Part shown: one piece after another, positions 1 to 63,865 of the stretch
Layout: each line of letters opens with the position of its first letter
Position numbering within the stretch: the first letter of the stretch is position 1
Assembly: GCF_050320075.1 (NCBI RefSeq)
Contig: NZ_CP190018.1
DNA: 64,000 nucleotides
From: Escherichia coli
Lineage (GTDB): Bacteria > Pseudomonadota > Gammaproteobacteria > Enterobacterales > Enterobacteriaceae
Direction: 5' to 3' (one strand)
Notes under the pieces: model-generated
Told to the model about the DNA's origin: nothing
The model's input: only the letters and a program-made list of their open reading frames with translations
Databases searched by the model: none
Position numbers and translations under genes: made by a program

Positions 1-55
1 GGATGGGCGCCCAGAATTTAATCAACCAGGCGTGTTTGAATTGCTGCCATGACAT
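1..55 (-). CDS. yedE: YedE-family inner-membrane transporter, first 18 codons only (gene continues beyond window start)
   Basis: Reverse complement of 1..55 translates to MSWQQFKHAWLIKFWAPI, matching the recalled YedE N-terminus; divergent from yedD as in K-12. Confidence 0.55.
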   Translation of the reverse strand, partial: MSWQQFKHAWLIKFWAPI

Positions 56-238
56 GAATGTAGCCTCTGAACTCAGAAGGTTTGAAACAGGAGTCGCGAA
101 TCATACACCATGCAAATTTATTTTCGGGGTAATAATTCACAAAAATAATAGTTAGATCAAATTTCTCTCTGAACCTGGAAAGGCTGGCGACATCAGGGCT
201 TTAATGCCACAATCCTCTTTTCTTCTCATGCAGGACGA

Positions 239-655
239 ATGATGAAAAAACTCGCAATTGCAGGCGCGCTCATGTTGCTGGCGGGCTGTGCCGAAGTCGA
301 AAACTATAACAATGTCGTGAAAACCCCCGCGCCGGACTGGCTGGCGGGCTACTGGCAGACCAAAGGGCCGCAACGTGCGCTGGTCAGTCCGGAAGCGATA
401 GGCAGCCTGATTGTCACTAAAGAGGGCGATACTCTGGATTGCCGTCAGTGGCAGCGGGTGATTGCCGTGCCGGGCAAGTTGACATTGATGTCAGATGATC
501 TCACTAACGTTACCGTAAAACGTGAGCTGTACGAGGTTGAGCGTGACGGTAACACCATTGAGTACGATGGTATGACGATGGAGCGTGTGGATCGCCCGAC
601 GGCAGAGTGTGCCGCCGCGCTGGATAAAGCGCCGTTACCGACGCCACTGCCGTAA
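239..655 (+). CDS. yedD: lipoprotein YedD
   Basis: 138-aa ORF with lipoprotein signal (LLAGC) matching YedD; sits next to amyA. Confidence 0.85.
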   Translation: MMKKLAIAGALMLLAGCAEVENYNNVVKTPAPDWLAGYWQTKGPQRALVSPEAIGSLIVTKEGDTLDCRQWQRVIAVPGKLTLMSDDLTNVTVKRELYEVERDGNTIEYDGMTMERVDRPTAECAAALDKAPLPTPLP

Positions 656-688
656 TGAAATCTCCCCGGCTTGCCGCCGGGGATGAAT

Positions 689-2176
689 TTAAATCACCTC
701 TTCGATAACCCACACGCTGACGCTGCCGCCGTTGCAAAAGAAGGTCGCTTCGCCGTTTTCGTCGGTCACAACGCTCTCTTGCCGATTCCCCAGAAAATCA
801 CGCCAGGTTTTATTGCCGTAATTCTCTCCCAGATGAATGGTTTTTTCGCCATCATCCCCGTTTGACATAACCACCACGCAGCCGGGATATTCGTCGGTGC
901 CACTGCGGCTAAAGGCAATGCAGTTCGGATGGTCGAAAAATAACGTCTGTACACCGTGGGCGAAACGCTGACGGGCGAGAATTAACTCATCAAGTTGTTC
1001 GATTATTGGCATATCTATCGGATAGGTTTGCCCGTCACCGCCAACATCTTCGTAATGCGCGCCATAGAGGTCCGGATAGAATACCGAAGGAACGCCATTT
1101 TCCCGCAACAAAATTAGAGCATACGCCAGCGGTTTAAACCACGGTTCGACCGGTGCTTCGAGGGCTTGCAACGGTTGGGTGTCGTGGTTGGCAACGAGTG
1201 TTACGGCGTGAAAAGGATCGGCTTCCACTAATGTACCCGTGAAAATCTGCGTCATGTCGTAGTCGCGCCCCATGCGCGATGCTTCATGGAATTTCATCTG
1301 CAGCGGTGCATCGAACAGCATGGTTTTGCCTTCCACCTGATCAATATACGTTTGCAGTTTATCGACTTCATGCGACCAGTATTCAGCCACAATAAATAGC
1401 GGCTTTGGTGCAACTTCTTGTACGTGTTCGATCCACTCTTTATAAAACCACGCCGGAATATGTTTGACCGCATCAAGACGAAAACCGTCGCATTGCGTTT
1501 GTTCCATCACCCAGCGCGCCCAGTATTTAATCTCTTCCGTCACGGCATGATTGCGGAAATCGATATTCTCGCCCATCAGATAATCGAAATTACCGAGTTC
1601 ATCATCAACCTGATCGTTCCAGCCTTCGCCGGTGTAGTCGTTAACAATTTTAAAAATGCCATCTTCATCAGGGTTTTCGATATGGTCGATACCGCTAAAA
1701 CATTTGAAATCCCAGATAAACTGCGAGTATTGCCCGGCACGGGCGGGGAAGGTGTAACGCGTCCAGCCTTCGCACTCAATGATTTCTTCGTCAATTTGCG
1801 TACGGTCATCAGCATTTACACGCTGCACGCGAATAGCTTCTTTTTCATCCGCGCCCATTTTGTGGTTGACTACCACGTCCAGCAGCACCGCAATGTCATT
1901 ACGTTTCAGAGCGTCAATGGCGGCCAGCAGTTGTGCTTTATCGCCATATTTAGTAGGGATGCTGCCTTTCTGATCAAACTCGCCTAAATCAAATAAATCA
2001 TAGGAGTCGTAGCCGACCGAATACCCGCCCGATGCGCCTTTATAGGCGGGCGGCAACCAGACCATATTGATACCAATATCATTAAAACCGTCGGCGCGCT
2101 CGGCCAGTTCAGGCCAGAGCTTACCGCCTTCCGGGTAATACCAGTGAAAACATTGTAACAGCGTGGGATTACGCAT
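689..2176 (-). CDS. amyA: cytoplasmic alpha-amylase
   Basis: 495-aa ORF recognised as E. coli AmyA. Confidence 0.95.
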
Positions 2177-2253
2177 TCTTCGACTCCATTCAAGGGGAAC
2201 ATTAGAAGCGTAGCCGTAATCGGATTATTCGCGAGCCATCGGCTCGTTAAGAT

Positions 2254-2619
2254 TCAAAAGAGGTTATCCTGCGGAGCCAGCACAAAGCCGCCCTGATCGC
2301 CATAGGCACTTAACACCGATTTTTGCATCGATGACTGACCGACCAGTTTCGCCAGTTCATCCATCCGAATCTGTAATAACTGCTTCACCTTGCTTTCGTT
2401 ATCGAGAATCAGGCGCAGCATCGGGCGGAGTTGCTCCTGCATCGTGGTGGACGGCTCAACCTCTTCAGTCAGGTGTGCAATCTCCTGCACCGCATTCACA
2501 TACGCCATTTCGCTGGCGATGAGTTCGTCCCACTGTTCTTCCGTTGCCAGGCGTAACATGAGCTGGCTTTTTTCGACGAGTTGTTGCCAGGCGAAATACA
2601 AATGCGGTGCGTGGTTCAT
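2254..2619 (-). CDS. fliT: flagellar export chaperone / anti-FlhDC factor FliT
   Basis: 121-aa ORF, last gene of fliDST. Confidence 0.9.
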
Positions 2620-3029
2620 CAGACTGGGTCCTGAATCAAAGAAGGGGAGAGTAACGACTCTTTCCAGGCATCGGCAATATTGCGCATTAATGCTTCCACT
2701 TCTTCGACTGCGGAGACATCGTTGCGTAAATTGGCTTGCAGCAAACGCCTGACCATATAGCTATAAAGAGCAATCAAGTTTTGGGTTAATTCGTCATTGC
2801 TCTCTTCATCAAGACTCACCCGCAGTCCGTTCTCAATAATGTTGATCGCTTTTGACAAAGAGACGCCTTTGCCTTGCTGATTGTTGTCCTGCATAAACAG
2901 GCGCGCTCTAACCAGTGCGCTCAGCACTCCATCAAATAGCATGGTGACCAGCTGCTGCTGGCTGGCGCTCATTACGGCGCTTTCGACGCCAATTTGTGCA
3001 TAGGCCTGGGTGCCTTTTGCCGCGTACAT
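2619..3029 (-). CDS. fliS: flagellin-specific chaperone FliS
   Basis: 136-aa ORF in fliDST. Confidence 0.9.
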
Positions 3030-3053
3030 GACCTGTCTCCCGATGAATATTGA

Positions 3054-4460
3054 TTACTTGGAATTACTGTTGTTTTCGAACTGCTGCGTTAAGTAGCTGC
3101 TGGTGCTGTTTAACGAGGTCATTAAAACGTCCAGTTGGGTAAATTGTTCTTTGTAGCGCGCGACCTGCGCATCAATGCGATCGCTGGCGGCGTTGTAGTC
3201 TTTAGTTAACTTATTCAGGGTCTTACTAACGCCATCGGTAGCGGCTTTAATAATGCCTGTTGTCGAAAGCCAACTGGTCAGGTTGCTGCCGATGGTGGTT
3301 GTGATGCCGGTTTTTTTACCATCGCCAACAATCAATGCACCTACGCCGCTGGCATCTTTTTTCAATGCAGCGGTGAGTTTGTCGGCATCCAGCTCCAGTT
3401 TGCCATCGCTGGGATCGGTCGTGATACCAATCTGCGCCAGCGTTTTATAGTTGGAAGAACTGACGGTATTACTCAGCATCGATTTCAACTGCGTCTGAAT
3501 CGTCCGCAGCGTGGAGTCGCCGAGCAGTGCGCCATTGCTAGAACTCTGGCTATCAGCTCCCGCATCTACGGCGGTGTATTTGGTCAGGCTGCTGAAGGTA
3601 TCTATTAGCGAGTTATAGGCATTCACCCAGTCTTTAATCGCCGTTTGCGCTTTGGAGGTGTCCTGAGTGATGGTTAGCGTCTGGTTGCCCGTGGTGACAT
3701 CGTTCAGGTTCAGGGTGATGTTTTCCAGCGCGTCGCTGATGGTGTTGCTGCTGTTCTCAATGGCGACGTTGTTGACCGTCAGCTGCGCATTCTGGGCGGC
3801 GACCGAGACCTCCATACCGTTGCTACTGGCACTGGCGTCATAGCCCATAAAACTTTGTAGCGCATCATCACCGCTAACCGAGAGCGTCATCGCATTATCA
3901 AGGCCGGTGTCATTCGATGTGACTGACAGACGATATTCACCGTTACCCACGTTAATGATGCTTGCGCTTACACCTGCTTTTGCGTTGTTGATGGCATCAC
4001 GGATCCCGCTTAACGACGAGTTAGCCGCGCTGATATCAATGGTGATCGGCTCTTTGTCGCCGCCTTGTTGAATGGTGAGTTTGCTGTCGCTGGTGGCGAT
4101 CGCCGTTTTCGTATCGTCTCTGGTGGTGCGCGTGGTCAGGGTTTGCGCCTGCGCCAGATGGGTGACGCTGATGGTGTATTTCCCGGCGATGGCGTTACCC
4201 GCAGTGGTGGCACTGAACGCGGTGGTGCTGCTGGTAGTGCTGGTGGCGGAAAAAAGATCGGCTTTAGACAATGCAGTATTGGCGGTCTGGAAAGTCGTCA
4301 GCGCGCTTTTCAGCGTACCGTAGGCGCTAAGTTTAGCGGTAAACGACGATTGCTGATTTGAAATAGGGGTTAGCGTCGCTTTTTGCGCGGCGGTGAGGCT
4401 ATCAAGGATTGAACTTAAATCCAGGCCTGACCCGACTCCCAGCGATGAAATACTTGCCAT
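3054..4460 (-). CDS. fliD: flagellar filament cap protein FliD
   Basis: 468-aa Ser/Thr-rich ORF, divergent from fliC. Confidence 0.95.
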   Translation of the reverse strand: MASISSLGVGSGLDLSSILDSLTAAQKATLTPISNQQSSFTAKLSAYGTLKSALTTFQTANTALSKADLFSATSTTSSTTAFSATTAGNAIAGKYTISVTHLAQAQTLTTRTTRDDTKTAIATSDSKLTIQQGGDKEPITIDISAANSSLSGIRDAINNAKAGVSASIINVGNGEYRLSVTSNDTGLDNAMTLSVSGDDALQSFMGYDASASSNGMEVSVAAQNAQLTVNNVAIENSSNTISDALENITLNLNDVTTGNQTLTITQDTSKAQTAIKDWVNAYNSLIDTFSSLTKYTAVDAGADSQSSSNGALLGDSTLRTIQTQLKSMLSNTVSSSNYKTLAQIGITTDPSDGKLELDADKLTAALKKDASGVGALIVGDGKKTGITTTIGSNLTSWLSTTGIIKAATDGVSKTLNKLTKDYNAASDRIDAQVARYKEQFTQLDVLMTSLNSTSSYLTQQFENNSNSK

Positions 4461-4502
4461 GCGATTTCCTTTTATCTTTCGACACGTAAAACGAATACCG
4501 GG

Positions 4503-4530
4503 GTTATCGGCCTGAATTGCGCAAAGTTTA
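4503..4530 (-). promoter_or_regulatory. sigma28 (FliA) class III promoter for fliDST
   Basis: Minus strand reads TAAACTTT-N11-GCCGATAA about 45 bp upstream of the fliD start. Confidence 0.5.
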
Positions 4531-4622
4531 CGTTTAATTGTTTTTTTTAATAGCGGGAATAAGGGGCAGAGAAAAGAGTATTTCGGCGACTAACAAAAAA
4601 TGGCTGTTTGTGAAAAAAATTC

Positions 4623-4649
4623 TAAAGGTTGTTTTACGACAGACGATAA
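4623..4649 (+). promoter_or_regulatory. sigma28 (FliA) promoter for fliC
   Basis: TAAAGGTT-N11-GACGATAA about 75 bp upstream of the fliC ATG. Confidence 0.55.
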
Positions 4650-4725
4650 CAGGGTTGACGGCGATTGAGCCGACGGGTGGAAACCCAATACGTAATCAAC
4701 GACTTGCAATATAGGATAACGAATC

Positions 4726-6396
4726 ATGGCACAAGTCATTAATACCAACAGCCTCTCGCTGATCACTCAAAATAATATCAACAAGAACCAGTCTGCGCTG
4801 TCGAGTTCTATCGAGCGTCTGTCTTCTGGCTTGCGTATTAACAGCGCGAAGGATGACGCCGCAGGTCAGGCGATTGCTAACCGTTTTACTTCTAACATTA
4901 AAGGCCTGACTCAGGCTGCACGTAACGCCAACGACGGTATTTCTGTTGCACAGACCACTGAAGGCGCGCTGTCCGAAATCAACAACAACTTACAGCGTAT
5001 TCGTGAACTGACGGTTCAGGCGACGACCGGAACTAACTCCACCTCTGACCTGGACTCCATTCAGGACGAAATCAAATCCCGTCTTGATGAAATTGACCGC
5101 GTATCCGGCCAGACCCAGTTCAACGGCGTGAACGTACTGTCAAAAGATGGCTCGATGAAAATTCAGGTCGGCGCGAACGATGGTGAAACCATCACGATTG
5201 ATCTGAAAAAGATCGACTCTTCTACATTGAAGCTGACCGGTTTTAACGTGAATGGCGAAGGTGAAACAGCCAATACTGCTGCAACACTTAAAGATATGGT
5301 TGGTTTAAAACTCGATAATACGGGGGTCACTACAGCTGGAGTTAATAGATATATTGCTGACAAAGCCGTCGCAAGTAGCACGGATATTTTGAATGCGGTA
5401 GCTGGTGTTGATGGCAGTAAAGTTTCCACGGAGGCAGATGTTGGTTTTGGTGCGGCTGCCCCTGGTACGCCAGTGGAATATACTTATCATAAAGATACTA
5501 ACACATATACGGCTTCTGCTTCAGTTGATGCGACTCAACTGGCGGCATTCCTGAATCCTGAAGCGGGTGGTACCACTGCTGCAACAGTAAGTATTGGCAA
5601 CGGTACAACAGCTCAAGAGCAAAAAGTCATTATTGCTAAAGATGGTTCTTTAACTGCTGCTGATGACGGTGCCGCTCTCTATCTTGATACTAATGGTAAC
5701 TTAAGTAAAACTAACGCAGGCACTGATACTCAAGCTAAACTGTCTGACTTAATGGCAAACAATGCTAAGGCAAAAACAGTCATTACAACAGATAAAGGTA
5801 CATTTACTGCTAATACGACAAACGATGGTTTTGATGGGGTAGATATTTCTGTTGATGCTTCAACGTTTGCTAATGCCGTTAAAAATGAGACTTACACTGC
5901 AACTGTTGGTGTAACTTTACCAGCGACATATACAGTCAATAATGGCACTGCTGCATCAGCGTATTTAGTCGATGGAAAAGTGAGCCAAACTCCTGCCGAG
6001 TATTTTGCTCAAGCTGATGGCACTATTACTAGTGGTGAAAATGCGGCTACCAGTAAAGCTATCTATGTAAGTGCCAATGGTAACTTAACGACTAACACAA
6101 CGAGTGAATCTGAAGCGACTACCAACCCGCTGGCAGCATTGGATGACGCTATCGCGTCCATCGACAAATTCCGTTCATCCCTTGGTGCTATCCAGAACCG
6201 TCTGGATTCCGCGGTCACCAACCTGAACAACACCACTACCAACCTGTCCGAAGCGCAGTCCCGTATTCAGGACGCCGACTATGCGACCGAAGTGTCCAAC
6301 ATGTCGAAAGCGCAGATTATTCAGCAGGCCGGTAACTCCGTGCTGGCAAAAGCTAACCAGGTACCGCAGCAGGTTCTGTCTCTGCTGCAGGGTTAA
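4726..6396 (+). CDS. fliC: flagellin (H antigen), 556 aa with non-K-12 central domain
   Basis: Conserved flagellin N terminus ([12 protein letters not shown]...) and C terminus (...QVLSLLQG); central region differs in length and sequence from the 498-aa K-12 flagellin. Confidence 0.95.
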
Positions 6397-6439
6397 TCGT
6401 CGTAACCTGATTAACTGAGACTGACGGCAACGCCAAATT

Positions 6440-6539
<100 letters not shown>

Positions 6540-6570
6540 ACATGAATGGTAATTTGCCAGCAACGTGCTT

Positions 6571-6595
6571 CCCCGCCACCGGCGGGGTTTTTTCT
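6571..6595 (+). terminator. rho-independent terminator ending the fliC 3'UTR
   Basis: CCCCGCCACCGGCGGGG hairpin followed by a T-run. Confidence 0.6.
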
Positions 6596-6715
6596 GTCCG
6601 CAATTTACCGGTAACCCCCAAATAACCCCTCATTTCACCCACTAATCGTCCGATTAAAAACCCTGCAGAAACGGATAATCATGCCGATAACTCATATAAC
6701 GCAGGGCTGTTTATC

Positions 6716-7435
6716 GTGAATTCACTCTATACCGCTGAAGGTGTAATGGATAAACACTCGCTGTGGCAGCGTTATGTCCCGCTGGTGCGTCACGAAGCAT
6801 TGCGCCTGCAGGTTCGACTGCCCGCGAGCGTGGAACTTGACGATCTGCTACAGGCGGGCGGCATTGGGTTACTTAATGCCGTCGAACGCTATGACGCCCT
6901 ACAAGGAACGGCATTTACAACTTACGCAGTGCAGCGTATCCGTGGCGCTATGCTGGATGAACTTCGCAGCCGTGACTGGGTGCCGCGCAGCGTGCGACGC
7001 AACGCGCGTGAAGTGGCACAGGCAATAGGGCAACTGGAGCAGGAACTTGGCCGTAACGCCACGGAAACTGAGGTAGCGGAACGTTTAGGGATCGATATTG
7101 CCGATTATCGCCAAATGTTGCTCGACACCAATAACAGCCAGCTCTTCTCCTACGATGAGTGGCGCGAAGAGCACGGCGATAGCATTGAACTGGTTACTGA
7201 TGATCATCAGCGAGAAAACCCGCTACAACAGCTGCTGGACAGTAATCTGCGCCAGCGGGTGATGGAAGCTATCGAAACGTTGCCGGAGCGCGAAAAACTG
7301 GTATTAACCCTCTATTACCAGGAAGAGCTGAATCTCAAAGAGATTGGCGCGGTGCTGGAGGTCGGGGAATCGCGGGTCAGTCAGTTACACAGCCAGGCCA
7401 TTAAACGGTTACGCACTAAACTGGGTAAGTTATAA
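6716..7435 (+). CDS. fliA: RNA polymerase sigma-28 factor FliA (GTG start)
   Basis: 239-aa ORF recognised as FliA; starts VNSLYTAEGV at GTG. Confidence 0.9.
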   Translation: MNSLYTAEGVMDKHSLWQRYVPLVRHEALRLQVRLPASVELDDLLQAGGIGLLNAVERYDALQGTAFTTYAVQRIRGAMLDELRSRDWVPRSVRRNAREVAQAIGQLEQELGRNATETEVAERLGIDIADYRQMLLDTNNSQLFSYDEWREEHGDSIELVTDDHQRENPLQQLLDSNLRQRVMEAIETLPEREKLVLTLYYQEELNLKEIGAVLEVGESRVSQLHSQAIKRLRTKLGKL

Positions 7436-7480
7436 CGTCAGTAAATGCCGCACTTTAATTTTGACTACCAGGAGTTCTTA

Positions 7481-8032
7481 ATGATGGTGCAGCACCTGAA
7501 AAGACGGCCATTAAGCCGCTATCTTAAAGACTTTAAACACAGCCAGACCCATTGCGCGCATTGCCGTAAATTACTCGACCGCATTACCCTCGTTCGCGAC
7601 GGCAAAATAGTGAATAAAATCGAGATTTCCCGCCTGGACATGCTGCTTGATGAAAATGGCTGGCAAGTGGAACAAAAATCATGGGCGGCATTGTGCCGAT
7701 TCTGCGGTGATTTACATTGCAAAACGCAGAGTGATTTTTTCGATATTATCGGCTTTAAGCAATTTCTTTTTGAGCAAACTGAAATGAGCCCAGGTACGGT
7801 GCGTGAATATGTCGTTCGTCTGCGCCGTTTGGGTAATCATCTACACGAGCAAAATATTTCCCTCGATCAGCTGCAGGATGGTTTCCTTGATGAAATCCTC
7901 GCCCCATGGCTGCCCACCACCAGCACCAACAATTACCGCATCGCGTTACGGAAGTATCAACACTATCAGCGTCAAACGCGTACCGGACTTGTGCAGAAAT
8001 CCTCCAGCCTGCCTGCTTCTGATATATATTAA
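7481..8032 (+). CDS. fliZ: flagellar regulator FliZ
   Basis: Recognised as FliZ; start trimmed to the MMVQHLKRR methionine inside the longer track ORF. Confidence 0.85.
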   Translation: MMVQHLKRRPLSRYLKDFKHSQTHCAHCRKLLDRITLVRDGKIVNKIEISRLDMLLDENGWQVEQKSWAALCRFCGDLHCKTQSDFFDIIGFKQFLFEQTEMSPGTVREYVVRLRRLGNHLHEQNISLDQLQDGFLDEILAPWLPTTSTNNYRIALRKYQHYQRQTRTGLVQKSSSLPASDIY

Positions 8033-8119
8033 ATAAGAATAAGATGTAGCGGAGTTGTTTTTGTGTTTACAAACAATGGCTCTACACTGCAAACAGACAT
8101 AACAACATTCGGGGTGAAT

Positions 8120-10011
<1,892 letters not shown>

Positions 10012-10025
10012 CTCCGGAAACGCTC

Positions 10026-10694
10026 ATGCAAGAAAGTATACAACTGGTTATTGATTCCTTGCCGTTCCTGCTGAAAGGGGCTGGGTATACGCTGCAACTC
10101 AGTATCGGCGGCATGTTTTTTGGCTTACTGCTCGGGTTTATTCTCGCGCTGATGCGCCTTTCGCCAATCTGGCCCGTGCGCTGGCTGGCGCGTTTTTATA
10201 TCTCTATTTTTCGTGGTACGCCGCTCATCGCCCAACTGTTTATGATCTATTACGGCTTGCCGCAGTTTGGCATCGAACTAGATCCCATTCCGTCAGCAAT
10301 GATTGGTCTGTCGCTAAACACTGCCGCCTATGCTGCCGAAACGCTGCGCGCCGCCATTTCTTCTATTGATAAAGGTCAGTGGGAAGCTGCTGCCAGTATT
10401 GGTATGACGCCGTGGCAGACCATGCGTCGCGCGATTTTGCCACAGGCGGCGCGGGTGGCGTTGCCGCCGCTGTCGAACAGCTTTATCAGCCTGGTAAAAG
10501 ATACGTCGCTGGCCGCGACAATCCAGGTGCCGGAGCTGTTCCGTCAGGCGCAGTTGATTACCTCGCGTACGCTGGAGGTGTTCACCATGTACCTGGCGGC
10601 TTCGCTCATCTACTGGATCATGGCGACAGTATTATCGACGTTGCAGAACCATTTTGAGAATCAACTTAATCGCCAGGAGAGAGAACCAAAATGA
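10026..10694 (+). CDS. tcyL: cystine ABC transporter permease
   Basis: 222-aa polytopic permease recognised as YecS/TcyL. Confidence 0.9.
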   Translation: MQESIQLVIDSLPFLLKGAGYTLQLSIGGMFFGLLLGFILALMRLSPIWPVRWLARFYISIFRGTPLIAQLFMIYYGLPQFGIELDPIPSAMIGLSLNTAAYAAETLRAAISSIDKGQWEAAASIGMTPWQTMRRAILPQAARVALPPLSNSFISLVKDTSLAATIQVPELFRQAQLITSRTLEVFTMYLAASLIYWIMATVLSTLQNHFENQLNRQEREPK

Positions 10695-11443
10695 GTGCCA
10701 TTGAAGTTAAGAACCTGGTGAAAAAATTCCACGGTCAGACGGTGCTGCACGGTATCGACCTTGAGGTGAAGCCTGGCGAAGTGGTGGCAATTATCGGGCC
10801 AAGTGGTTCCGGCAAAACCACGTTGCTACGCAGCATAAATCTGCTGGAACAACCGGAAGCGGGAACCATCACCGTTGGCGATATCACCATTGATACTGCA
10901 CGTTCATTAAGTCAGCAAAAATCGCTGATTCGCCAGTTGCGTCAGCACGTCGGGTTTGTCTTCCAGAACTTTAATTTGTTTCCGCATCGTACGGTGCTGG
11001 AAAACATTATTGAAGGGCCGGTGATCGTCAAAGGCGAACCGAAAGAAGAGGCCACGGCGCGCGCTCGCGAGCTGCTGGCGAAAGTTGGGCTGGAAGGTAA
11101 AGAAACCAGCTATCCACGTCGTTTGTCTGGCGGTCAACAGCAGCGTGTCGCGATTGCGCGAGCGCTGGCTATGCGTCCTGAGGTGATTTTGTTTGACGAG
11201 CCAACGTCGGCGCTGGATCCAGAGCTGGTGGGCGAAGTCCTGAACACCATCCGCCAGCTGGCGCAGGAAAAGCGCACGATGGTGATTGTGACGCACGAAA
11301 TGAGCTTTGCCCGGGATGTTGCGGACCGGGCGATCTTTATGGACCAGGGGCGGATAGTCGAGCAGGGGGCCGCAAAAGCGTTATTTGCCGATCCTCAGCA
11401 GCCTCGCACCCGCCAGTTCCTCGAGAAGTTTCTGCTGCAATAA
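10691..11443 (+). CDS. tcyN: cystine ABC transporter ATP-binding protein
   Basis: 250-aa ABC ATPase (GPSGSGKTT, LSGGQQQR), 4-bp overlap with tcyL. Confidence 0.9.
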   Translation: MSAIEVKNLVKKFHGQTVLHGIDLEVKPGEVVAIIGPSGSGKTTLLRSINLLEQPEAGTITVGDITIDTARSLSQQKSLIRQLRQHVGFVFQNFNLFPHRTVLENIIEGPVIVKGEPKEEATARARELLAKVGLEGKETSYPRRLSGGQQQRVAIARALAMRPEVILFDEPTSALDPELVGEVLNTIRQLAQEKRTMVIVTHEMSFARDVADRAIFMDQGRIVEQGAAKALFADPQQPRTRQFLEKFLLQ

Positions 11444-11672
11444 TAAGAAAAAATCAGCCCCGACGATTCACCTGTCGGGGCGGGACGCCATTTCAAGCGT
11501 GATAAATCTGCTTAACAAATCAGCATAACTCATTAATAACATAAGAGAATGCGATGGCTTGCAAAAGTAATTCATTGCCTGAATAATATAAATTATATAT
11601 AAATCTTATTTATGTGATAGTTTGAATTATCATTATAAATGATACTCACTCTCAGGGGCGTTGCGGTTTACT

Positions 11673-12395
11673 ATGCAGGATACGGATTTTTTCAGCTGGC
11701 GTCGCACGATGCTGTTGCGTTTTCAGAGGATGGAGGCCGCAGAAGAGGTCTACCATGAAATAGAGCTTCAGGCTCAGCAGCTGGAGTACGATTACTATTC
11801 GTTATGTGTTCGCCACCCGGTACCATTCACGCGACCTAAAGTGGCTTTCTACACCAATTACCCTGAGGCTTGGGTTAGTTATTATCAGGCAAAAAACTTT
11901 CTCGCAATTGATCCTGTGCTGAACCCTGAAAACTTTAGTCAGGGCCATTTAATGTGGAATGATGACTTATTCAGCGAAGCACAGCCGTTATGGGAAGCCG
12001 CGCGCGCACATGGTTTACGCCGCGGTGTCACTCAGTATTTAATGCTGCCAAATCGGGCGCTGGGCTTTTTGTCCTTTTCCCGTTGCAGCACGCGCGAAAT
12101 ACCCATTCTTAGTGATGAACTGCAATTAAAAATGCAGTTACTGGTGCGAGAAAGTCTGATGGCTCTGATGCGTTTAAATGATGAAATAGTGATGACGCCA
12201 GAGATGAATTTCAGCAAGCGCGAAAAAGAAATTCTGAAATGGACGGCGGAAGGGAAGACATCAGCAGAGATAGCGATGATTTTGTCAATCTCTGAGAATA
12301 CGGTCAATTTCCATCAGAAAAACATGCAGAAAAAAATCAATGCACCAAATAAGACCCAGGTGGCCTGTTACGCGGCCGCTACTGGCTTAATTTGA
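11673..12395 (+). CDS. sdiA: LuxR-family quorum-sensing regulator SdiA
   Basis: Recognised as SdiA; start at MQDTDFFSW ATG (track ORF begins at an upstream TTG). Confidence 0.9.
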   Translation: MQDTDFFSWRRTMLLRFQRMEAAEEVYHEIELQAQQLEYDYYSLCVRHPVPFTRPKVAFYTNYPEAWVSYYQAKNFLAIDPVLNPENFSQGHLMWNDDLFSEAQPLWEAARAHGLRRGVTQYLMLPNRALGFLSFSRCSTREIPILSDELQLKMQLLVRESLMALMRLNDEIVMTPEMNFSKREKEILKWTAEGKTSAEIAMILSISENTVNFHQKNMQKKINAPNKTQVACYAAATGLI

Positions 12396-12461
12396 TCGCT
12401 TTTCTTTCTGCGTGCCAGATGCAAAAACCGGCTGAAAGGCACGCTCTCAGCCGGTTTTATA

Positions 12462-12686
12462 TTACTGACGGTAGGCTTGTTTAATTTGCTTAACCGTTTT
12501 GGAAAATACTGCAGCCTGGGTTTCGTCTTCGATCAGCGCAAGCTGTTTTTCCATCTTTAACATCACGCGGCCCGCGTCAGCTTGTCCCATCGCCTGCAGC
12601 ATCAGCGTCAGCATCGCTTTCAGGCAGGAGACTTCATTTGCCAGTTCTTGATTATTCTCGGCAGTAGAAAAATCAGGCGTACTCAT
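12462..12686 (-). CDS. yecF: uncharacterised protein YecF
   Basis: 74-aa ORF in conserved position between sdiA and uvrY. Confidence 0.8.
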
Positions 12687-13144
12687 TTATTTTCCTCGTC
12701 ATGTTGCAATGAAAATTTGCGGTGAAAAATGTTAAGGCGGCGGAGTATACCATAAGCTTTGCTAAAAATAGCAGTGGTTGTTTTTTGAGCGTGATATCGG
12801 CAGTGCTATAAAATACGTTAATATAATGACCAATAAATATTTTTATCATGAATGTTTTTTGCCCGTATTGTTCGGGTTAATTAATGTTACATATTCAGCG
12901 GGCTGATTTTCATTTTTGCTGAATAAAGTCAATTTTTGTCACATTTCATCGCAGGGCTTACAGTGAAACGATCCCGGAAGCCGTTGGTGACGGGCGTGAC
13001 CATAACTGTGGACAATCGAATTTACAAAAACGAGAGAAAAATCGAATACCCACCATTTTTAACGTTTCAAAGTTGCAATAAAAACCGCTAATATACGAAT
13101 GACTAACTATCAGTAGCGTTATCCCTATTTCTGGAGATATTCCT

Positions 13145-13801
13145 TTGATCAACGTTCTACTTGTTGATGACCACGAACTGGTGCGCGCAGGGATACGACG
13201 CATTCTGGAAGATATAAAGGGTATAAAAGTCGTCGGTGAGGCATCGTGCGGTGAAGACGCCGTTAAGTGGTGCCGGGCAAATGCCGTTGACGTGGTGCTA
13301 ATGGACATGAGTATGCCGGGCATTGGCGGTCTTGAGGCGACGCGTAAAATCGCGCGTTCCACAGCTGATGTCAAAATCATCATGCTTACCGTCCATACAG
13401 AAAACCCTTTACCAGCGAAAGTCATGCAGGCCGGTGCTGCTGGCTACCTCAGCAAAGGCGCGGCTCCGCAGGAAGTCGTGAGTGCGATCCGTTCTGTCTA
13501 TTCAGGGCAGCGTTACATTGCTTCTGACATCGCTCAACAAATGGCGTTAAGCCAGATCGAACCAGAAAAAACAGAAAGCCCATTTGCCAGTTTGTCTGAA
13601 CGTGAATTGCAGATTATGCTGATGATCACCAAGGGCCAGAAGGTCAATGAGATCTCAGAACAGCTCAATCTCAGTCCGAAAACGGTGAACAGCTACCGCT
13701 ATCGTATGTTCAGTAAACTAAACATTCATGGCGATGTTGAGCTGACTCACCTGGCAATTCGCCATGGTCTGTGTAATGCGGAGACATTATCAAGTCAGTG
13801 A
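13145..13801 (+). CDS. uvrY: response regulator UvrY (TTG start)
   Basis: 218-aa receiver + LuxR HTH protein recognised as UvrY. Confidence 0.9.
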
Positions 13802-15630
13802 GTGATCAGTTTGACGCAAAAGCGTTTTTAAAAACCGTAACCAGCCAGCCAGGCGTTTATCGCATGTATGATGCTGGTGGTACGGTTATCTATGTCGGCA
13901 AAGCGAAAGACCTGAAAAAACGGCTTTCCAGCTATTTCCGTAGCAACCTCGCTTCGCGCAAAACCGAAGCGCTGGTCGCCCAGATCCAGCAAATTGATGT
14001 AACGGTTACTCATACAGAAACCGAAGCGCTGTTGCTGGAACACAACTACATCAAACTCTATCAGCCGCGTTACAACGTTTTGCTACGCGATGATAAATCT
14101 TATCCTTTTATCTTCCTGAGTGGCGATACCCACCCGCGTCTGGCGATGCATCGTGGTGCGAAGCATGCCAAAGGTGAATATTTCGGCCCGTTCCCGAATG
14201 GCTATGCCGTACGTGAAACACTGGCGCTACTGCAAAAGATATTCCCCATTCGCCAGTGCGAAAATAGTGTTTATCGCAATCGCTCGCGTCCGTGTCTGCA
14301 ATATCAGATAGGGCGCTGTCTGGGACCGTGCGTTGAAGGACTGGTGAGTGAAGAAGAATACGCTCAGCAGGTCGAGTATGTGCGCCTGTTTTTGTCTGGC
14401 AAAGATGATCAGGTGCTTACGCAACTCATTAGCCGTATGGAAACTGCCAGCCAGAATCTGGAGTTTGAAGAAGCGGCACGTATTCGCGACCAAATTCAGG
14501 CGGTGCGACGCGTCACCGAAAAACAGTTTGTGTCCAATACCGGCGACGACCTCGACGTTATTGGTGTGGCGTTCGATGCGGGCATGGCTTGTGTCCATGT
14601 ATTGTTCATTCGTCAGGGCAAAGTGCTCGGCAGCCGCAGCTATTTCCCGAAAGTGCCTGGCGGTACGGAACTGAGCGAGGTGGTAGAAACCTTCGTAGGT
14701 CAGTTCTATTTACAAGGCAGCCAGATGCGCACCTTACCGGGTGAGATCCTGCTCGATTTTAATCTTAGCGATAAAACGCTGCTCGCCGATTCCCTTTCAG
14801 AACTGGCGGGACGCAAGATTAATGTTCAAACCAAACCTCGCGGCGATCGGGCGCGTTATCTGAAACTCGCGCGCACCAATGCGGCGACGGCCTTAACCAG
14901 CAAACTTTCGCAGCAATCTACCGTTCACCAGCGACTGACCGCGCTTGCCAGCGTGTTGAAATTGCCGGAAGTGAAGCGGATGGAGTGCTTTGACATCAGC
15001 CATACCATGGGTGAACAAACCGTCGCTTCCTGTGTGGTGTTTGATGCTAACGGCCCGCTGCGTGCGGAGTATCGGCGCTATAACATTACTGGCATCACGC
15101 CGGGCGATGATTATGCGGCGATGAATCAGGTGCTGCGTCGGCGTTATGGTAAAGCCATCGACGACAGTAAGATCCCGGATGTGATCCTTATTGACGGCGG
15201 CAAAGGCCAGCTTGCGCAGGCGAAAAATGTCTTCGCCGAACTGGATGTCTCATGGGATAAAAATCATCCGCTGCTTCTTGGCGTTGCCAAAGGTGCAGAT
15301 AGGAAGGCAGGGTTGGAAACGCTGTTCTTTGAGCCGGAAGGTGAGGGATTCAGTTTGCCGCCAGATTCTCCCGCGCTGCATGTTATCCAGCATATTCGCG
15401 ATGAATCACACGATCACGCGATTGGCGGGCACCGTAAGAAACGGGCGAAGGTCAAAAATACCAGTTCCCTGGAAACCATTGAAGGCGTCGGGCCAAAACG
15501 TCGGCAAATGTTGTTGAAATATATGGGCGGTTTGCAAGGTTTACGTAACGCCAGCGTTGAGGATATTGCAAAAGTGCCGGGTATTTCGCAAGGTCTGGCA
15601 GAAAAGATCTTCTGGTCGTTGAAACATTGA
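13798..15630 (+). CDS. uvrC: excinuclease ABC subunit C (GTG start)
   Basis: 610-aa ORF with GIY-YIG N terminus, overlapping the uvrY stop. Confidence 0.95.
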
Positions 15631-15686
15631 TGTCTCTGTAGCAACATAGGGGTAATCTTACTGACAACAGATAGTTACCCGTCATT

Positions 15687-16235
15687 ATGCAATTTAATAT
15701 CCCTACGTTGCTTACACTGTTCCGTGTCATCCTTATCCCATTCTTTGTATTGGTCTTTTATCTGCCTGTCACCTGGTCGCCGTTTGCCGCCGCGCTCATT
15801 TTCTGCGTCGCGGCGGTGACTGACTGGTTCGATGGTTTTCTGGCACGCCGCTGGAACCAGAGTACCCGGTTTGGTGCTTTCCTTGACCCTGTAGCAGATA
15901 AAGTTCTCGTGGCTATCGCCATGGTGCTGGTAACCGAGCATTATCACAGCTGGTGGGTGACCTTACCGGCAGCAACGATGATCGCCCGTGAAATTATTAT
16001 TTCTGCGCTACGCGAATGGATGGCGGAGTTGGGTAAACGCAGTAGCGTGGCTGTCTCCTGGATTGGGAAAGTGAAAACCACCGCCCAGATGGTGGCGCTG
16101 GCCTGGCTGCTGTGGCGTCCGAACATTTGGGTTGAGTACGCCGGTATTGCACTTTTCTTTGTGGCTGCGGTACTGACTCTGTGGTCAATGTTGCAATATT
16201 TGAGCGCTGCGCGTGCAGATTTGCTTGATCAGTGA
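15687..16235 (+). CDS. pgsA: CDP-diacylglycerol--glycerol-3-phosphate 3-phosphatidyltransferase
   Basis: 182-aa membrane protein recognised as PgsA. Confidence 0.95.
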
Positions 16236-16386
16236 TCGTTTCGGCGCAATTTTCAGCAAACGATCAAAAGTGGTGAAAAATATCGTTGACTCATCGCGCC
16301 AGGTAAGTAGAATGCAACGCATCGAACGGCGGCACTGATTGCCAGACGATAATAAAATCAAGTGATTAACTGATTGCTTGATGAAT

Positions 16387-16462
<76 letters not shown>

Positions 16463-16516
16463 GTTTAAAAGGCATCGGCGTCAAGCGGATGTCTGGCTGA
16501 AAGGCCTGAAGAATTT

Positions 16517-16602: not shown

Positions 16603-16689
16603 GCCCGGATGGTGGAATCGGTAGACACAAGGGATTTAAAATCCCTCGGCGTTCGCGCTGTGCGGGTTCAAGTCCCGCTCCGGGTACCA
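16603..16689 (+). tRNA. leuZ: tRNA-Leu (UAA)
   Basis: GCCCGGATGGTGGAATCGGTAGACACAAGGGATTTAAAATCCC...CCGGGTACCA, long variable arm, anticodon TAA. Confidence 0.95.
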
Positions 16690-16763
16690 TGGGAAAGATA
16701 AGAATAAAATCAAAGCAATAAGCAGTGTCGTGAAACCACCTTCGGGTGGTTTTTTTGTGCCTG
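16634..16763. repeat. direct repeat copy 1 (att-like): 3' 56 nt of leuZ plus ~74 bp downstream including terminator
   Basis: Near-identical to 20765..20895; begins in the leuZ anticodon loop. Confidence 0.85.
16733..16757 (+). terminator. rho-independent terminator of the glyW-cysT-leuZ operon
   Basis: AAACCACCTTCGGGTGGTTT hairpin followed by TTTTTTT. Confidence 0.7.
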
Positions 16764-16941
16764 AAATTCACGCCCTGTGCATATCCTGTGCTCACGGGGG
16801 GCAATGAGCTGCAATCTCAAGCCCGGCAATGCCGAATCGAACGTGTCGCCTCCAGCATAGAGAACCAGGCCGCTTTGCCTGTTTTCCGGTACTCTTCCGG
16901 GAAGGGGGGCCAGCTGAGCAAGCTATAATGCTCTGGCCACC

Positions 16942-17673
16942 CTAAGCACAAAGTTGCTTAATTCGTGCAATCACCTCATCTCTGTATTTCTGGTGTCCGC
17001 GCATAGCCCTTGGATGGGCTATCCTGAAACAGATTGTATGACCTGTTTTGAACTCCCATAGCTTCCCCGGAATGACTGAAGAAGTCTCATAGCCGCCTAG
17101 CTCAGTAAGCACCTGTTTTATGATGTAGTCTGTTCTCCGGGCTCCGGATGCAAAGATGGTGAAATCAGGCTCAAGGTGTTTAATTTGTACCGCCAGCAGT
17201 TTCAGCGAGGCTAATATGACTTCCTGCACTTCATTTTGAGGGCGATTGAGAGGGGGCAGTCCGTCGTAATCCCACGCCAGTAGATTGGCATACACGATAG
17301 CCTGAGGAGGAATATTAAGCTCCCGGGCCAGCCGGAAGTGATACTGCGTGAAGCGGCTACGTGATTTGTGGTTCGTGGTGCCATCATTTTGTGCCGGAAG
17401 ATGTTTCCTGTAACGATCTACAGCCTCTTCAACCACCTGCCCGATGGTGACGTCAGGTATAAGTCCCAGAACCCGTGATATCGTATTCTTACCATTCAGC
17501 GTATTCCAGCCAGCGGTTTCACGCCCAACCAGCATGATTTTTACCGGTGAGTGCCAGTATTCTTCAAAGGGCACGGGTAAAAAGACGCCTGAGTATTTAT
17601 CCTCATTCAGGTTAAATGACTGGGCGTCAACTTCCTGTAATATCCGTTTGTATGCGTCTAATAGTCTTTCCAT
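16942..17673 (-). CDS. hypothetical protein, 243 aa, with uracil-DNA-glycosylase-superfamily-like motif pattern (tentative)
   Basis: Long intact ORF; N-terminal KIMLVGRETAGW resembles UDG motif A (family 4 IMFVGEAPG), C-terminal IAHPRAMRG resembles motif B (HPxxxxR); no database search possible. Confidence 0.55.
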   Translation of the reverse strand: MERLLDAYKRILQEVDAQSFNLNEDKYSGVFLPVPFEEYWHSPVKIMLVGRETAGWNTLNGKNTISRVLGLIPDVTIGQVVEEAVDRYRKHLPAQNDGTTNHKSRSRFTQYHFRLARELNIPPQAIVYANLLAWDYDGLPPLNRPQNEVQEVILASLKLLAVQIKHLEPDFTIFASGARRTDYIIKQVLTELGGYETSSVIPGKLWEFKTGHTICFRIAHPRAMRGHQKYRDEVIARIKQLCA

Positions 17674-17753
17674 TCTTCAATCCTGCCCCGTAATAAAAAT
17701 ACCTTCAGATATATATTATTTTCATGATATCAATCAGATACATGAGGATAAAT

Positions 17754-18440
17754 ATGCAAAAATCCTTCCGATTCACCAATTCATCCATCAAAGCCCTTCC
17801 GGCAAACACAGATACCCGATCTACAGAGCTTGAGGTATCTGATACCGAAGTCATTGGCCTCAAATGCCTCTCAGGTCGAACGGGCAACAAACGTTTCCTC
17901 CTGCGCTACACATTCCACGGTACCAAAAAAAGTATCAGTATTGGCAGATTCCCTGAAATCGATGTGGGAACAGCCCGTCAGATAGCTCGTCGTCACAAGG
18001 AGGCGATTGCACTGGGAAATGACCCTAAGGCAGAGCGCGATAATTATCGGGCGATGCCAACGCTTAGTGAGTTTTTTCACCAGACCTATGTTCCGTTCAT
18101 CAAGCGCCATAAAAAGTCCTGGGATAAGGATGTTCAGCGTTTCACGCAATACATTGAACCTCGTCTGGGGAAGATACGTTACTGCGACCTTCAGGCCCGG
18201 GAAATCCAGCAGGTGCTTTTTGACATGCTTGAGGGCCGTATTCACGGCCAGCAGTATGCACCGTCTACCTGTAACAGGGCACTGGCTATTCTGAAAACCA
18301 TGGGCCGTTATGCGCTACGACAGGATGTCCTGGAGAAGAATGAAGCCGATAAGATCCCTTTGCTGAAGGAGAATAATCACCGGACGCGCTTTTTTGACGC
18401 TGATGAGATCAGGAGAATCCTTGATGCTGCGTCTCGATAA
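17754..18440 (+). pseudogene. P4-type tyrosine integrase, N-terminal fragment only (catalytic domain missing)
   Basis: MQKSFRFTNSSIKALP... arm-binding/DUF4102-like N terminus and core-binding region; ORF stops at ~228 aa versus ~400 aa expected, so the R..HxxR..Y catalytic domain is absent. Confidence 0.75.
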
Positions 18441-18454
18441 CCCAATAAAGCTGC

Positions 18455-18490
<36 letters not shown>

Positions 18491-18491
18491 C

Positions 18492-18535
<44 letters not shown>

Positions 18536-18655
18536 TTCTAAGGCTTGCTTTAATGCTAAGGCTAAATGATTTTGATATAGTAAGTTCATACTTAGCGGGC
18601 AGATGCCCACAGACATAGTACCGAAAATAAATCAGGTATTCTGCGAGATTTCAGT

Positions 18656-19984
18656 ATGAAAATAGCCAATATTAGACTTACGAATTTTAGATGTTTTGAC
18701 GAGTTTAGTGTTGATTTTGACCCAAGACTTACAGTTCTCATTGCTCGTAATGGTAGAGGGAAATCTACTCTGCTTGACGCGGTAGCATTAGCTTTAGGAC
18801 CATTTTTAACTCGTTTGCCAGGGATCAAAGGGCTAAGTTTCAAGAAAACCGATTTCCGGATCGACGAAAATGGAGACCAGCCGTCCTATATGCGAGTAAG
18901 TTGTACTAGTACAACGGGTATAACTTGGGATAGAACTGAGCGAAGAGATCTGACAAAAAAAACGTTAGGTAGCATCCCCCAAGGGGCAGCCCTTAAAGCC
19001 TTGAATGATTACGTCGATACGTTCATTGATTCTCACAATGAGAATAAACACTATACATTGCCAATTTTTGTTTATTACGGAACTGGGCGTGGAGTGTTTG
19101 ATATACCACTCAGAAAACGTGCATTTAACAAGCATTTTTCTCGATTTGAGGCCCTTGACGGTGCTCTTGAAAGCAAAACAAATTTCAAAAGATTTGTGCA
19201 ATATTTTTATTTTCTTGAAGAAAAAGAAAATAGATTACAGAAAGAGCAACGATCATTTGAAGTAGAAATCCCTGAATTAAGGGCAATACGCTTGGCTGTG
19301 GAAAAATTACTGCCAGAGTTTAGCAATATTCGCTCGGCAGTACCTGCTGGAATTATGGTCGATTGGTGTAAGCCTATTGGAAATGGTGAAACAACCATAC
19401 AAAAGCTAAGGATTGAACAACTTAGTGATGGCTATAGAACAACTTTAGCTATGGTTATGGATATTGCAGCAAGAATGGCAGAAGCTAACCCCTATTCGAG
19501 TGATCCTCTAAGTTCTGAGGGGATAATTCTCATTGATGAGGTAGATCTGCATCTGCATCCGGAATGGCAACGTGAGTTTCTCCCTAGATTAATCAACGTT
19601 TTCCCTCATCTTCAGTTCATAGTATCGACGCATTCACCATTTATCATCCAGTCTGTCAAAGAGGGGATGTTGGTCGATCTTGATAAAGATGACATTTCGG
19701 ATAGCCCCTCTTTGAATAAAGAACTCAGCATCGAAGATATTGCTGAGGGTGTAATGGGAATGGAAAAAGTTCAACGAAGTGAATTGTTTAACAAACAAGT
19801 CGCAGTTTCAGATAGATATTATCAGTTACTGAATGAAGGAAGAAGTGAAAGCGACCCAGAGGTAAGGAAGCTCTCCGCTGAGCTTGATAAATTGGAAGAG
19901 TTTTTTGGAGATAACCCAGCTTATGTAGCCTTACTTCGTGCTGAGCGCCGAAAAATAATGGGGACACAAGGAAGTAAACAATGA
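18656..19984 (+). CDS. ABC/AAA-type ATPase (RecF/SMC-like head, AAA_15/21-like), 442 aa; Septu PtuA-like candidate
   Basis: Walker A NGRGKST (K36), signature-like LSDGYR, Walker B IILIDEVD, H-loop STHSP; ~37% GC; stop overlaps the downstream start (ATGA). Confidence 0.85.
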   Translation: MKIANIRLTNFRCFDEFSVDFDPRLTVLIARNGRGKSTLLDAVALALGPFLTRLPGIKGLSFKKTDFRIDENGDQPSYMRVSCTSTTGITWDRTERRDLTKKTLGSIPQGAALKALNDYVDTFIDSHNENKHYTLPIFVYYGTGRGVFDIPLRKRAFNKHFSRFEALDGALESKTNFKRFVQYFYFLEEKENRLQKEQRSFEVEIPELRAIRLAVEKLLPEFSNIRSAVPAGIMVDWCKPIGNGETTIQKLRIEQLSDGYRTTLAMVMDIAARMAEANPYSSDPLSSEGIILIDEVDLHLHPEWQREFLPRLINVFPHLQFIVSTHSPFIIQSVKEGMLVDLDKDDISDSPSLNKELSIEDIAEGVMGMEKVQRSELFNKQVAVSDRYYQLLNEGRSESDPEVRKLSAELDKLEEFFGDNPAYVALLRAERRKIMGTQGSKQ

Positions 19985-20592
19985 GACCTGTAAATCGACC
20001 TCCATATAATGGAACTGTTTATGCAGATTATAAATCATTTTTACCTTCGCTATTAACTGCATATGGCGGATATTGTTCTTATTGTGAGCGGCCGGATAAG
20101 GTTGATGTGGAGCATGTTGTCCCAAAAACGCATGCACCACTTTTGATTACTGATTGGAACAATTTTTTACTGGGTTGCCCTCGCTGTAACCGAGATTTTA
20201 AAAAAAGTAAGAATACTCAACGTATAGGCTATGTTTGGCCAGATGTTGAGAATACATTTAATTTATTGACATACCATCCAGATGGTAGAGTAGAGCCTAA
20301 GCAGGGGCTGTCTGCCGGACTAACTGCGCAGGTACAGGCTACTATTGATTTGGTATGTCTTGATGATGGTAACCAAGTACAAAAAACTTTAAATCTTGGT
20401 AGAAGGAGATATTTTGGACTCGCGAATAAGGCCAAGACTCTTTATCTGAGTAATTTATTGAGTATTGATGAGGTCATGGATATGGCTCAGTTAGGATATT
20501 GGTCGATCTGGTATAATGTGTTTCAAGGTGTACCTGCTGTCCTTTCAGCTTTGGAGAATTCCTATCCTAATACCGCTATAAACCGCCCATGA
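19981..20592 (+). CDS. HNH endonuclease, 203 aa; Septu PtuB-like candidate
   Basis: Zinc-finger HNH pattern C32-x2-C35 ... H45 ... N60 ... C66-x2-C69; translationally coupled to the upstream ATPase. Confidence 0.85.
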   Translation: MRPVNRPPYNGTVYADYKSFLPSLLTAYGGYCSYCERPDKVDVEHVVPKTHAPLLITDWNNFLLGCPRCNRDFKKSKNTQRIGYVWPDVENTFNLLTYHPDGRVEPKQGLSAGLTAQVQATIDLVCLDDGNQVQKTLNLGRRRYFGLANKAKTLYLSNLLSIDEVMDMAQLGYWSIWYNVFQGVPAVLSALENSYPNTAINRP

Positions 20593-20764
20593 CATAGGTG
20601 AAATGAATTGGCTCAGGTGCGTACAAGGGGAAGACTTACCTGTGCAGCTTCTGTGTTCAACGTTATCCATGTCTATCTATTTACTGCCAATTACAGTAAA
20701 GTTGGTGGATAATTACAGCAAAGTGTTGCAATGGGTTGCTATGTAAATCATTGATCCTGCGTAG

Positions 20765-20895
20765 AATTTAAAATCCCTCGGCGTTCGCGCTGTGCGGGTT
20801 CAAGTACCCGCTCCGGGTACCATGGGAAAGATAAGAATAAAATCAAAGCAATAAGCAGTGTCGTGAAACCACCTTCGGGTGGTTTTTTTGTGCCT
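20765..20895. repeat. direct repeat copy 2 (att-like): partial leuZ 3' half + terminator copy with a 1-bp insertion
   Basis: Matches 16634..16763 except an extra A (CAAGTACCCGCTCC versus CAAGTCCCGCTCC). Confidence 0.85.
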
Positions 20896-21017
20896 GCAAC
20901 TTGTCGTTACACCCTCCTTAATTTTTAATCACCGGCAAAGCCACTCAAAAAGTATCTCTGTTACGGACCGACATGTAAGATAGGTGCTGGCGAGTTGAGA
21001 TCCACAAGGAAAAGCGT

Positions 21018-32883: not shown

Positions 32884-33385
32884 AACCTGTTCCTTATTCT
32901 GTGAACTTCAGGTGACATTAAAGCTTTACTCCTAATGGAGAAACGACGCAATCCCAACTCAGTCAAACAGGTAAATATTAGTCTGATTATTAGTAAAGAC
33001 AATTAATCAATCACTCTCGGTGATCATATGATTTCAACTGTAATTATAAGAAAATAATGTACTGATTCTCCATATTAAACAAGTGGTTAATATATGTAAA
33101 ACATTTTATTAACATTAAGTTGATTGTTGCCTTTCTTTGTATTTAATTAGTTTGTTGTGCGGTAAGTGTCTGTTTAAAAATAGCTTATCTGGTATTGCAT
33201 TAAAGCAATTATTTATAGCAGATGATTATTTACGGTGAGTTATTTTAACTGTGCGCAACATCCCATTTCGATTATTCCTGTTTCATTTTTGCTTGCTAGC
33301 GTCGCGAAAAACTTTTTAACAGATTGAAATACACCCAAAACAAAAGTATGACTTATACATTTATGTTAAGTAATTGAGCGTTTTG

Positions 33386-39025: not shown

Positions 39026-39051
39026 TTCTCCCGATTTCCTCAATTGCAATG

Positions 39052-39080
39052 AACCCGATGACCTGCGCATCGGGTTTTTT
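39052..39080 (+). terminator. rho-independent terminator after cheW
   Basis: AACCCGATGACCTGCGCATCGGGTT hairpin + T-run. Confidence 0.6.
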
Positions 39081-39111
39081 ATTTCAGTTTCGCGGCGGGT
39101 GGCATCAGCAA

Positions 39112-39138
39112 TAAAGTTTCCCCCTTCCTTGCCGATAA
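39112..39138 (+). promoter_or_regulatory. sigma28 promoter for tar-tap-cheRBYZ
   Basis: Perfect consensus TAAAGTTT-N11-GCCGATAA ~30 bp upstream of tar. Confidence 0.6.
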
Positions 39139-49287: not shown

Positions 49288-49319
49288 AAAAGCCGATGTC
49301 TGCCATGACATCGGCTTTT
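49288..49319. terminator. bidirectional rho-independent terminator between convergent flhE and argS
   Basis: AAAAAAGCCGATGTC...GACATCGGCTTTT hairpin with A/T runs on both sides. Confidence 0.6.
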
Positions 49320-49333
49320 GCCGTATAACGCGA

Positions 49334-51853: not shown

Positions 51854-52609
<756 letters not shown>

Positions 52610-52656
52610 TTTTTACCGTTGCATCATGTCGCCCAATATGATGCTTGCTCGTACCA

Positions 52657-52688
52657 GGCCCCTGCAATTTCAACAGGGGCCTTTTTTT
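52657..52688 (+). terminator. rho-independent terminator after cutC
   Basis: GGCCCCTGCAATTTCAACAGGGGCC hairpin + TTTTTTT. Confidence 0.65.
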
Positions 52689-59128: not shown

Positions 59129-59180
59129 CATCAAGGTCTAAATGCACTACATGGGCACCTAAACATATACATGTGATGTT

Positions 59181-59203
59181 GAGGTGTTAGAAAGGGGGCT
59201 GTT
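59181..59203 (-). terminator. hairpin downstream of the 306-aa minus-strand gene
   Basis: AGGGGGCTGTTCAGCCCCT inverted repeat immediately after the stop of 59219..60139. Confidence 0.35.
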
Positions 59204-59218
59204 CAGCCCCTGATAGAC

Positions 59219-63828: not shown

Positions 63829-63865
63829 TGTAGTATGAGTAAGAGATTTAAGGAGATTTTTACAA

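Follow-up and report, generated by a model that had tools for sequence, protein, structure and literature searches.

The stretch of Escherichia coli DNA analysed here (the window, 64,000 nucleotides) carries at 4726–6396, on the plus strand, a fliC gene that we assign to the H18 type of flagellin, in a subvariant typical of sequence type ST963. The gene was identified from the list of open reading frames, from Pfam, and from its 100% identity to the gene that 14 complete genomes have annotated as ‘FliC/FljB family flagellin’. The reading frame opens with ATG and runs uninterrupted through 556 codons to its stop; the open reading frame list gives exactly the bounds and the length that the initial annotation had assigned to it. 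Pfam places Flagellin_N (PF00669) at residues 5–140 (E 2.9e-46), Flagellin_C (PF00700) at residues 470–554 (E 1.4e-31) and an enterobacterial ‘FliC’ family match at residues 344–460. Both the ends with PF00669 and PF00700 and the locus, in which fliD-fliS-fliT and fliA-fliZ flank fliC and a sigma-28 promoter pattern is present, are those of a bacterial flagellin of the FliC/FljB family.

The neighbouring genes fliS, fliD, fliA, fliZ, tcyJ and dcyD follow the gene order of K-12, with the strand reversed. Divergent from fliC is fliD, for the filament cap (3054–4460, minus strand; 98.15% nucleotide identity to K-12), and beyond it fliS, for the flagellin export chaperone (2619–3029, minus strand); both are open reading frames annotated in strain 746, which is identical here. 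On the other side lies fliA (6716–7435, plus strand; 99.17% nucleotide identity to K-12), likewise an annotated open reading frame, encoding the sigma-28 that would drive fliC transcription. The fliD–fliC intergenic region matches K-12 at 263 of 265 positions. Pattern matching finds a putative sigma-28 (FliA) class-3 promoter for fliC at 4623–4649 on the plus strand (TAAAGGTT, an 11-nt spacer and GACGATAA), whose function we infer from the known K-12 promoter, and a putative divergent promoter of sigma-28 type for fliD at 4504–4530 on the minus strand (TAAACTTT, an 11-nt spacer and GCCGATAA). Downstream, where the fliC–fliA intergenic region is identical to K-12 at 308 of 320 positions, the fliC 3′UTR (6400–6594, plus strand) appears homologous to the K-12 FliX sRNA: in K-12 the ncRNA fliX lies directly 3′ of fliC, and 187 of 195 K-12 positions are identical. 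This homology is drawn from the K-12 annotation and the alignment; Rfam returned no family match in the 3′UTR. Read directly, the 3′UTR contains REP-like palindromes and a terminator hairpin at 6571–6587, followed by a T-run at 6588–6593.

FliC of K-12 strain MG1655 has 498 aa (1497 nt), the length that the initial annotation gives for it, and comparison with it divides the window’s protein into three parts. The N-terminal D0/D1 segment (codons 1–164, 4726–5217, plus strand) is conserved, with 95.1% amino acid identity to K-12 and 99.4% to H18 alleles, as is the C-terminal D1/D0 segment (codons 468–556, 6127–6393, plus strand), with 96.6% and 100%, respectively. Between them, the central variable region (codons 165–467, 5218–6126, plus strand) is only 20.9% identical to K-12, and that in a forced alignment. 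At the nucleotide level, blastn aligns the window to K-12 over 1–5216 at 97.3% and over 6127–13504 at 97.9%, with no alignment to K-12 over 5217–6126. The centre is also low in G+C (0.40–0.46, against about 0.5 in the flanks). Thus, the first reading of this gene, as a flagellin with conserved ends of about 170 and 100 aa around a non-K-12 centre, is borne out, with measured ends of about 165 and 90 aa; it would have been overturned by a centre identical to that of K-12 fliC, which is not what we find. As K-12-like ends enclose a non-K-12 centre, the strain has an H type other than that of K-12, again as first proposed, and we name this type below as H18. We rejected H48, the K-12 antigen type, for this gene on the mismatch of the central domain.

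How much of fliC has been exchanged is less apparent from the protein than from the DNA. In successive 60-nt steps, identity to K-12 is 96.7–100% as far as 4859; between 4860 and the point where the alignment stops it is 80–92%, with a recovery on the 3′ side at about 6216, some 180 nt short of the fliC stop. Elevated divergence from K-12 therefore runs from about 4860 (codon ~46) to about 6216, which is most of fliC. Across codons 1–164, nucleotide identity to K-12 is 89.8%; 34 of the differing codons are synonymous and 8 are non-synonymous, and for codons 468–556 these counts are 16 and 3. Most of the differences at the ends are synonymous, so the conserved ends have the same divergent history as the centre. 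Overall, most of the gene is divergent, an extent that purifying selection masks at the protein level.

Comparison with close relatives extends this further. Over the backbone at 21–33 kb, 47 complete genomes match the window at 99% or more, and all others at 98.7% or less. Among the former is strain 144, a sister genome in which this site encodes a different flagellin, of 562 aa, with a centre 33.3% identical to that of the window. The window and strain 144 differ at about 1.2% of sites over a tract at 770–16,472 that contains fliC: there are about 185 differences inside it, excluding the unalignable fliC centre, compared with about 9 over 16.5–59.1 kb. It follows that, on the scale of this lineage, the difference in H type belongs to a recombination tract that is at least 15.7 kb long. 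The tract spans amyA to pgsA, and its right edge adjoins the glyW-cysT-leuZ tRNA cluster. In the two sister lineages, the flanks lie at about the same distance from enteroaggregative E. coli (EAEC) 042. No near-identical donor is present among the complete genomes, where the next best match for the right flank is at 99.4%.

The initial annotation had proposed a localised allelic replacement in the central part of fliC. In its strict form, this would be an intragenic event in which the central segment alone was swapped into a K-12-like fliC. Part of the proposal stands, in that protein ends 95–97% identical to K-12 surround an unalignable centre and the neighbouring genes are 98–99% identical to K-12. 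Two results argue against the restriction to the centre: nucleotide identity to K-12 is already down to 80–92% from about 4860 and stays low until about 180 nt before the stop, with differences that are mostly synonymous, and the tract that differs from strain 144 is at least 15.7 kb long. We consider a swap of the centre alone improbable. On the reading that we prefer, exchange of fliC within a longer tract, sister lineages come to differ in H antigen through recombination tracts of several kilobases and not through gene-centre swaps.

Several lines of evidence identify the H type. Fourteen complete E. coli genomes carry the window’s fliC at 100% identity and a fifteenth carries it at 99.9%; the genomes that share its allele also match the initial 25 kb of the window at about 100%. 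Two carriers of the identical gene are documented: CE2050 is the reference genome of ST963 (PMC9429958), and MS14384 is an ST963 strain typed OgN12:H18 (PMC10024524). The ST963 paper and its supplements do not state a serotype (PMC9429958). By protein, FliC is 98.0% identical to the 554-aa flagellin of EAEC 042 (O44:H18), differing at 11 of 556 positions and with 96.7% identity in the centre. It is 98.7% identical to a common 554-aa allele (for example, that of NCTC9112), from which it differs by five substitutions, all but one in the centre, and by a 2-residue indel (TTNDGFDG in the window versus TTK--FDG). The H18 call thus draws on the in-silico typing of one identical strain and on the 98% match to a strain that was serotyped. 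The papers on MS-H and ECTyper name H18 simply as an entry in lists. A literature search by strain name found no H type for the 562-aa allele like that of strain 144, nor for the strains with the 554-aa allele.

The centre, too, groups with those of H18 strains. Centre identities are 96.7–98.0% to H18 alleles, 55.6% to H6, 33.3% to strain 144 and, as given above, 20.9% to K-12. In a search of 5426 complete genomes with the centre, 15 matched at 99% or more, 203 at 95–99%, 2 at 90–95% and 234 at 60–80%; the last group includes strains named O127:H6 and O102:H6. The centre is therefore present at 95% identity or more in 218 of 5426 complete genomes (about 4%). As these identities are bimodal, at 95% and above or 80% and below with only the two genomes at 90–95%, the allele falls inside the H18 cluster. 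Together with the identity to MS14384 and the closeness to EAEC 042, this leads us to conclude from the sequence that the intact gene is almost certainly a functional fliC for the flagellar antigen H18, of the 556-aa subvariant that is typical of ST963. Among complete genomes, only 15 have the exact subvariant, and all of them apparently belong to the ST963 lineage; the exact protein is on record for at least 1000 contigs, under the name ‘FliC/FljB family flagellin’.

We considered whether the changes specific to ST963 might make the allele a novel H type, or one that is set apart serologically. In favour of this are the position of its differences from NCTC9112, a 2-residue indel and five substitutions of which four lie in the centre, and the distances themselves, 11 of 556 positions from EAEC 042 and 2.8% of nucleotides from the common allele. 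However, the identical allele of MS14384 was typed as H18, the centre stands at 96.7–98.0% to the alleles of H18 strains with the next type, H6, far off at 55.6%, and the bimodal distribution puts the allele within the H18 cluster, so a separate type is very unlikely. Relative to classical H18 alleles, the subvariant differs at 7–11 positions, 6–10 of them in the exposed centre and including the 2-residue indel, and within H18 it might still be subtly different serologically.

Two observations concern NCTC9112 itself. Differences between its fliC and that of the window are unevenly spread: 19 fall at fliC nt 301–500 (within 4726–5226 of the window), all but one of them synonymous, and others cluster at nt 901–1600, with none at 501–900. 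This clustering suggests intragenic mosaicism among H18 alleles. In addition, the fliD gene adjoining its 554-aa H18-type fliC is annotated as a frameshifted pseudogene (L003 1328–2735), so that NCTC9112 may be non-motile although its fliC is intact.

A search of solved structures with phmmer relates the H18 flagellin to that of H6. The best matches to FliC are 7SQJ and 7SN7 (E 4.3e-235), colinear over residues 1–556 versus 1–548, followed by the H7 (7SN4) and K-12 (8CXM) structures, which align well at the ends only. 7SN7 and 7SQJ represent the filament of enteropathogenic E. coli (EPEC) O127:H6, the flagellin of which has the outer domains D2, D3 and D4 (PMC8931119). The outer-domain region of the window’s FliC is thus colinear with and homologous to that of EPEC H6, and the 55.6% identity between the centres makes it safe to infer that their outer domains share a fold. 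By this homology, the centre is predicted to be the surface-exposed, H-antigen-determining part of the protein, corresponding to the D2-D3-D4 outer domains of H6 flagellin. On the same 55.6%, we rejected membership of H6 for the gene. That the gene is an H6/H18 mosaic or an H6-type member, as a best structural match that is colinear over the full length might suggest, is extremely improbable, since the centre has just 55.6% protein and about 65% DNA identity to H6 and contains no near-identical segment.

Outside fliC, the window is largely ordinary backbone. It is colinear throughout with K-12 positions 1,951,867–2,008,331 at 97.3–98.2% identity, apart from a few indels, and the surroundings of fliC, with fliD at 98.2% and fliA at 99.2% rounded identity to K-12, are as backbone-like as the initial annotation had described the fli and flh genes. 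The exceptions to colinearity are the fliC centre, a 4-kb islet by leuZ, the K-12 IS1 upstream of flhD, the yecT region and an insertion in yecE. Two RNAs recognized by Rfam are expected backbone features: MicL sRNA (52,381–52,688, plus strand; 368 bits), within or after cutC, and C0465 RNA (39,045–39,122, minus strand; 100 bits).

The islet (16,634–20,899) is not in K-12, adjoins the glyW-cysT-leuZ tRNA cluster and is bordered by direct repeats of 131–134 bp at 16634–16766 and 20766–20899. Its genes encode a truncated integrase, a 243-aa protein that matches no family and a defence pair of the Septu type, made up of PtuA (18656–19984; PADLOC PtuA, E 2e-190) and PtuB/HNH (19981–20592; E 6e-61). 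The islet is also found in sister strain 144. The window is without the IS1 (IS1H) that MG1655 has upstream of flhDC; at this site, 33,358–33,365, a junction overlap of about 8 bp is consistent with an IS1 target duplication in K-12. At 49,292–49,330, about 39 bp stand in place of the K-12 yecT/yecV region (~770 bp, flhE–argS). Alignment to both K-12 and strain 144 ends within yecE, and foreign DNA follows from 59,131 to the end of the window at 64,000, with the far end of the insertion beyond the window. This DNA encodes a phage-type Dam N6-adenine methyltransferase with a helix-turn-helix (HTH; 61250–61912); 306-aa and 322-aa reading frames in it have no Pfam match. Of the 5426 complete genomes, just two contain the full 59,131–64,000 segment (YZLc1-3 and Ec-U3, which have the same fliC type); it is therefore a strain-level insertion of a mobile element or prophage that disrupts yecE.

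Established flagellar biology suggests how this flagellin would work, and fliD, fliS, fliA and the flh, che and mot genes are present and colinear with K-12. As for any enterobacterial flagellin, FliA (sigma-28) would transcribe fliC from the class-3 promoter, and FliC would be chaperoned by FliS, exported by the flagellar type III apparatus and polymerised under the FliD cap. The N- and C-terminal helices (residues ~1–165 and 468–556) would form the D0/D1 core of the filament, with the surface recognized by TLR5, and the 303-residue centre would form the exposed outer domains, homologous to D2-D3-D4 of H6, by which the H antigen is defined. All of this, from expression and export to polymerisation, TLR5 recognition of D1 and antigenic specificity, is expected here by analogy. 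The H type of a lineage is set by homologous recombination at the fliC locus; in the clonal complex to which ST963 (of phylogroup D and near ST38) belongs, the exchanged DNA is the tract of at least 15.7 kb from amyA to pgsA.

The outer domains of H6 flagellin tetramerise into a sheath with a seam (PMC8931119); the paper does not list the H6 interface residue by residue. Filaments of H18, those of the ST963 subvariant included, could form an H6-like sheath, with tetramerised D2/D4 contacts and possibly a seam, that alters waveform and tumbling in viscous media; we regard this as a tentative idea, somewhat more doubtful than probable. If it is true, then the changes in the ST963 centre, including the ND insertion, might subtly alter the lattice or the antigenic surface, and the sheath itself would be a modest structural result.

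The allele is otherwise an ordinary one, already catalogued, and there is nothing new about it. H18 flagellin is a well-studied molecule: the FliC of EAEC 042 is reportedly the classic IL-8-inducing ‘EAEC flagellin’ of the work by Steiner and colleagues from 2000 (a reference of PMC2808357). Another H18 strain is UMN026 (O17:K52:H18). The window’s fliC opens no new question, and its value is one of annotation, in that the H type of the strain is fixed as H18. The region is also nearly identical to ST963 genomes, and the two findings together point to the ST963 lineage.

Set against known systems, the gene is nearest to the H18 flagellins of EAEC 042 and NCTC9112, with which it shares the locus, the architecture, the centre and an identical C-terminal stretch of 89 residues. 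It differs from them in length (556 versus 554 aa), in having ND for K at residues ~366–368 and in 5–9 further substitutions. The EPEC O127:H6 flagellin is colinear over its full length, with homologous D2-D3-D4 and near-identical D0/D1 domains, but is of another H type, at 548 versus 556 aa and with several small indels. The K-12 H48 flagellin (498 aa; PDB 8CXM) shares the locus, the promoter, the UTRs and D0/D1 ends at 95–97% identity, whereas its centre is unrelated in sequence and 58 residues shorter.
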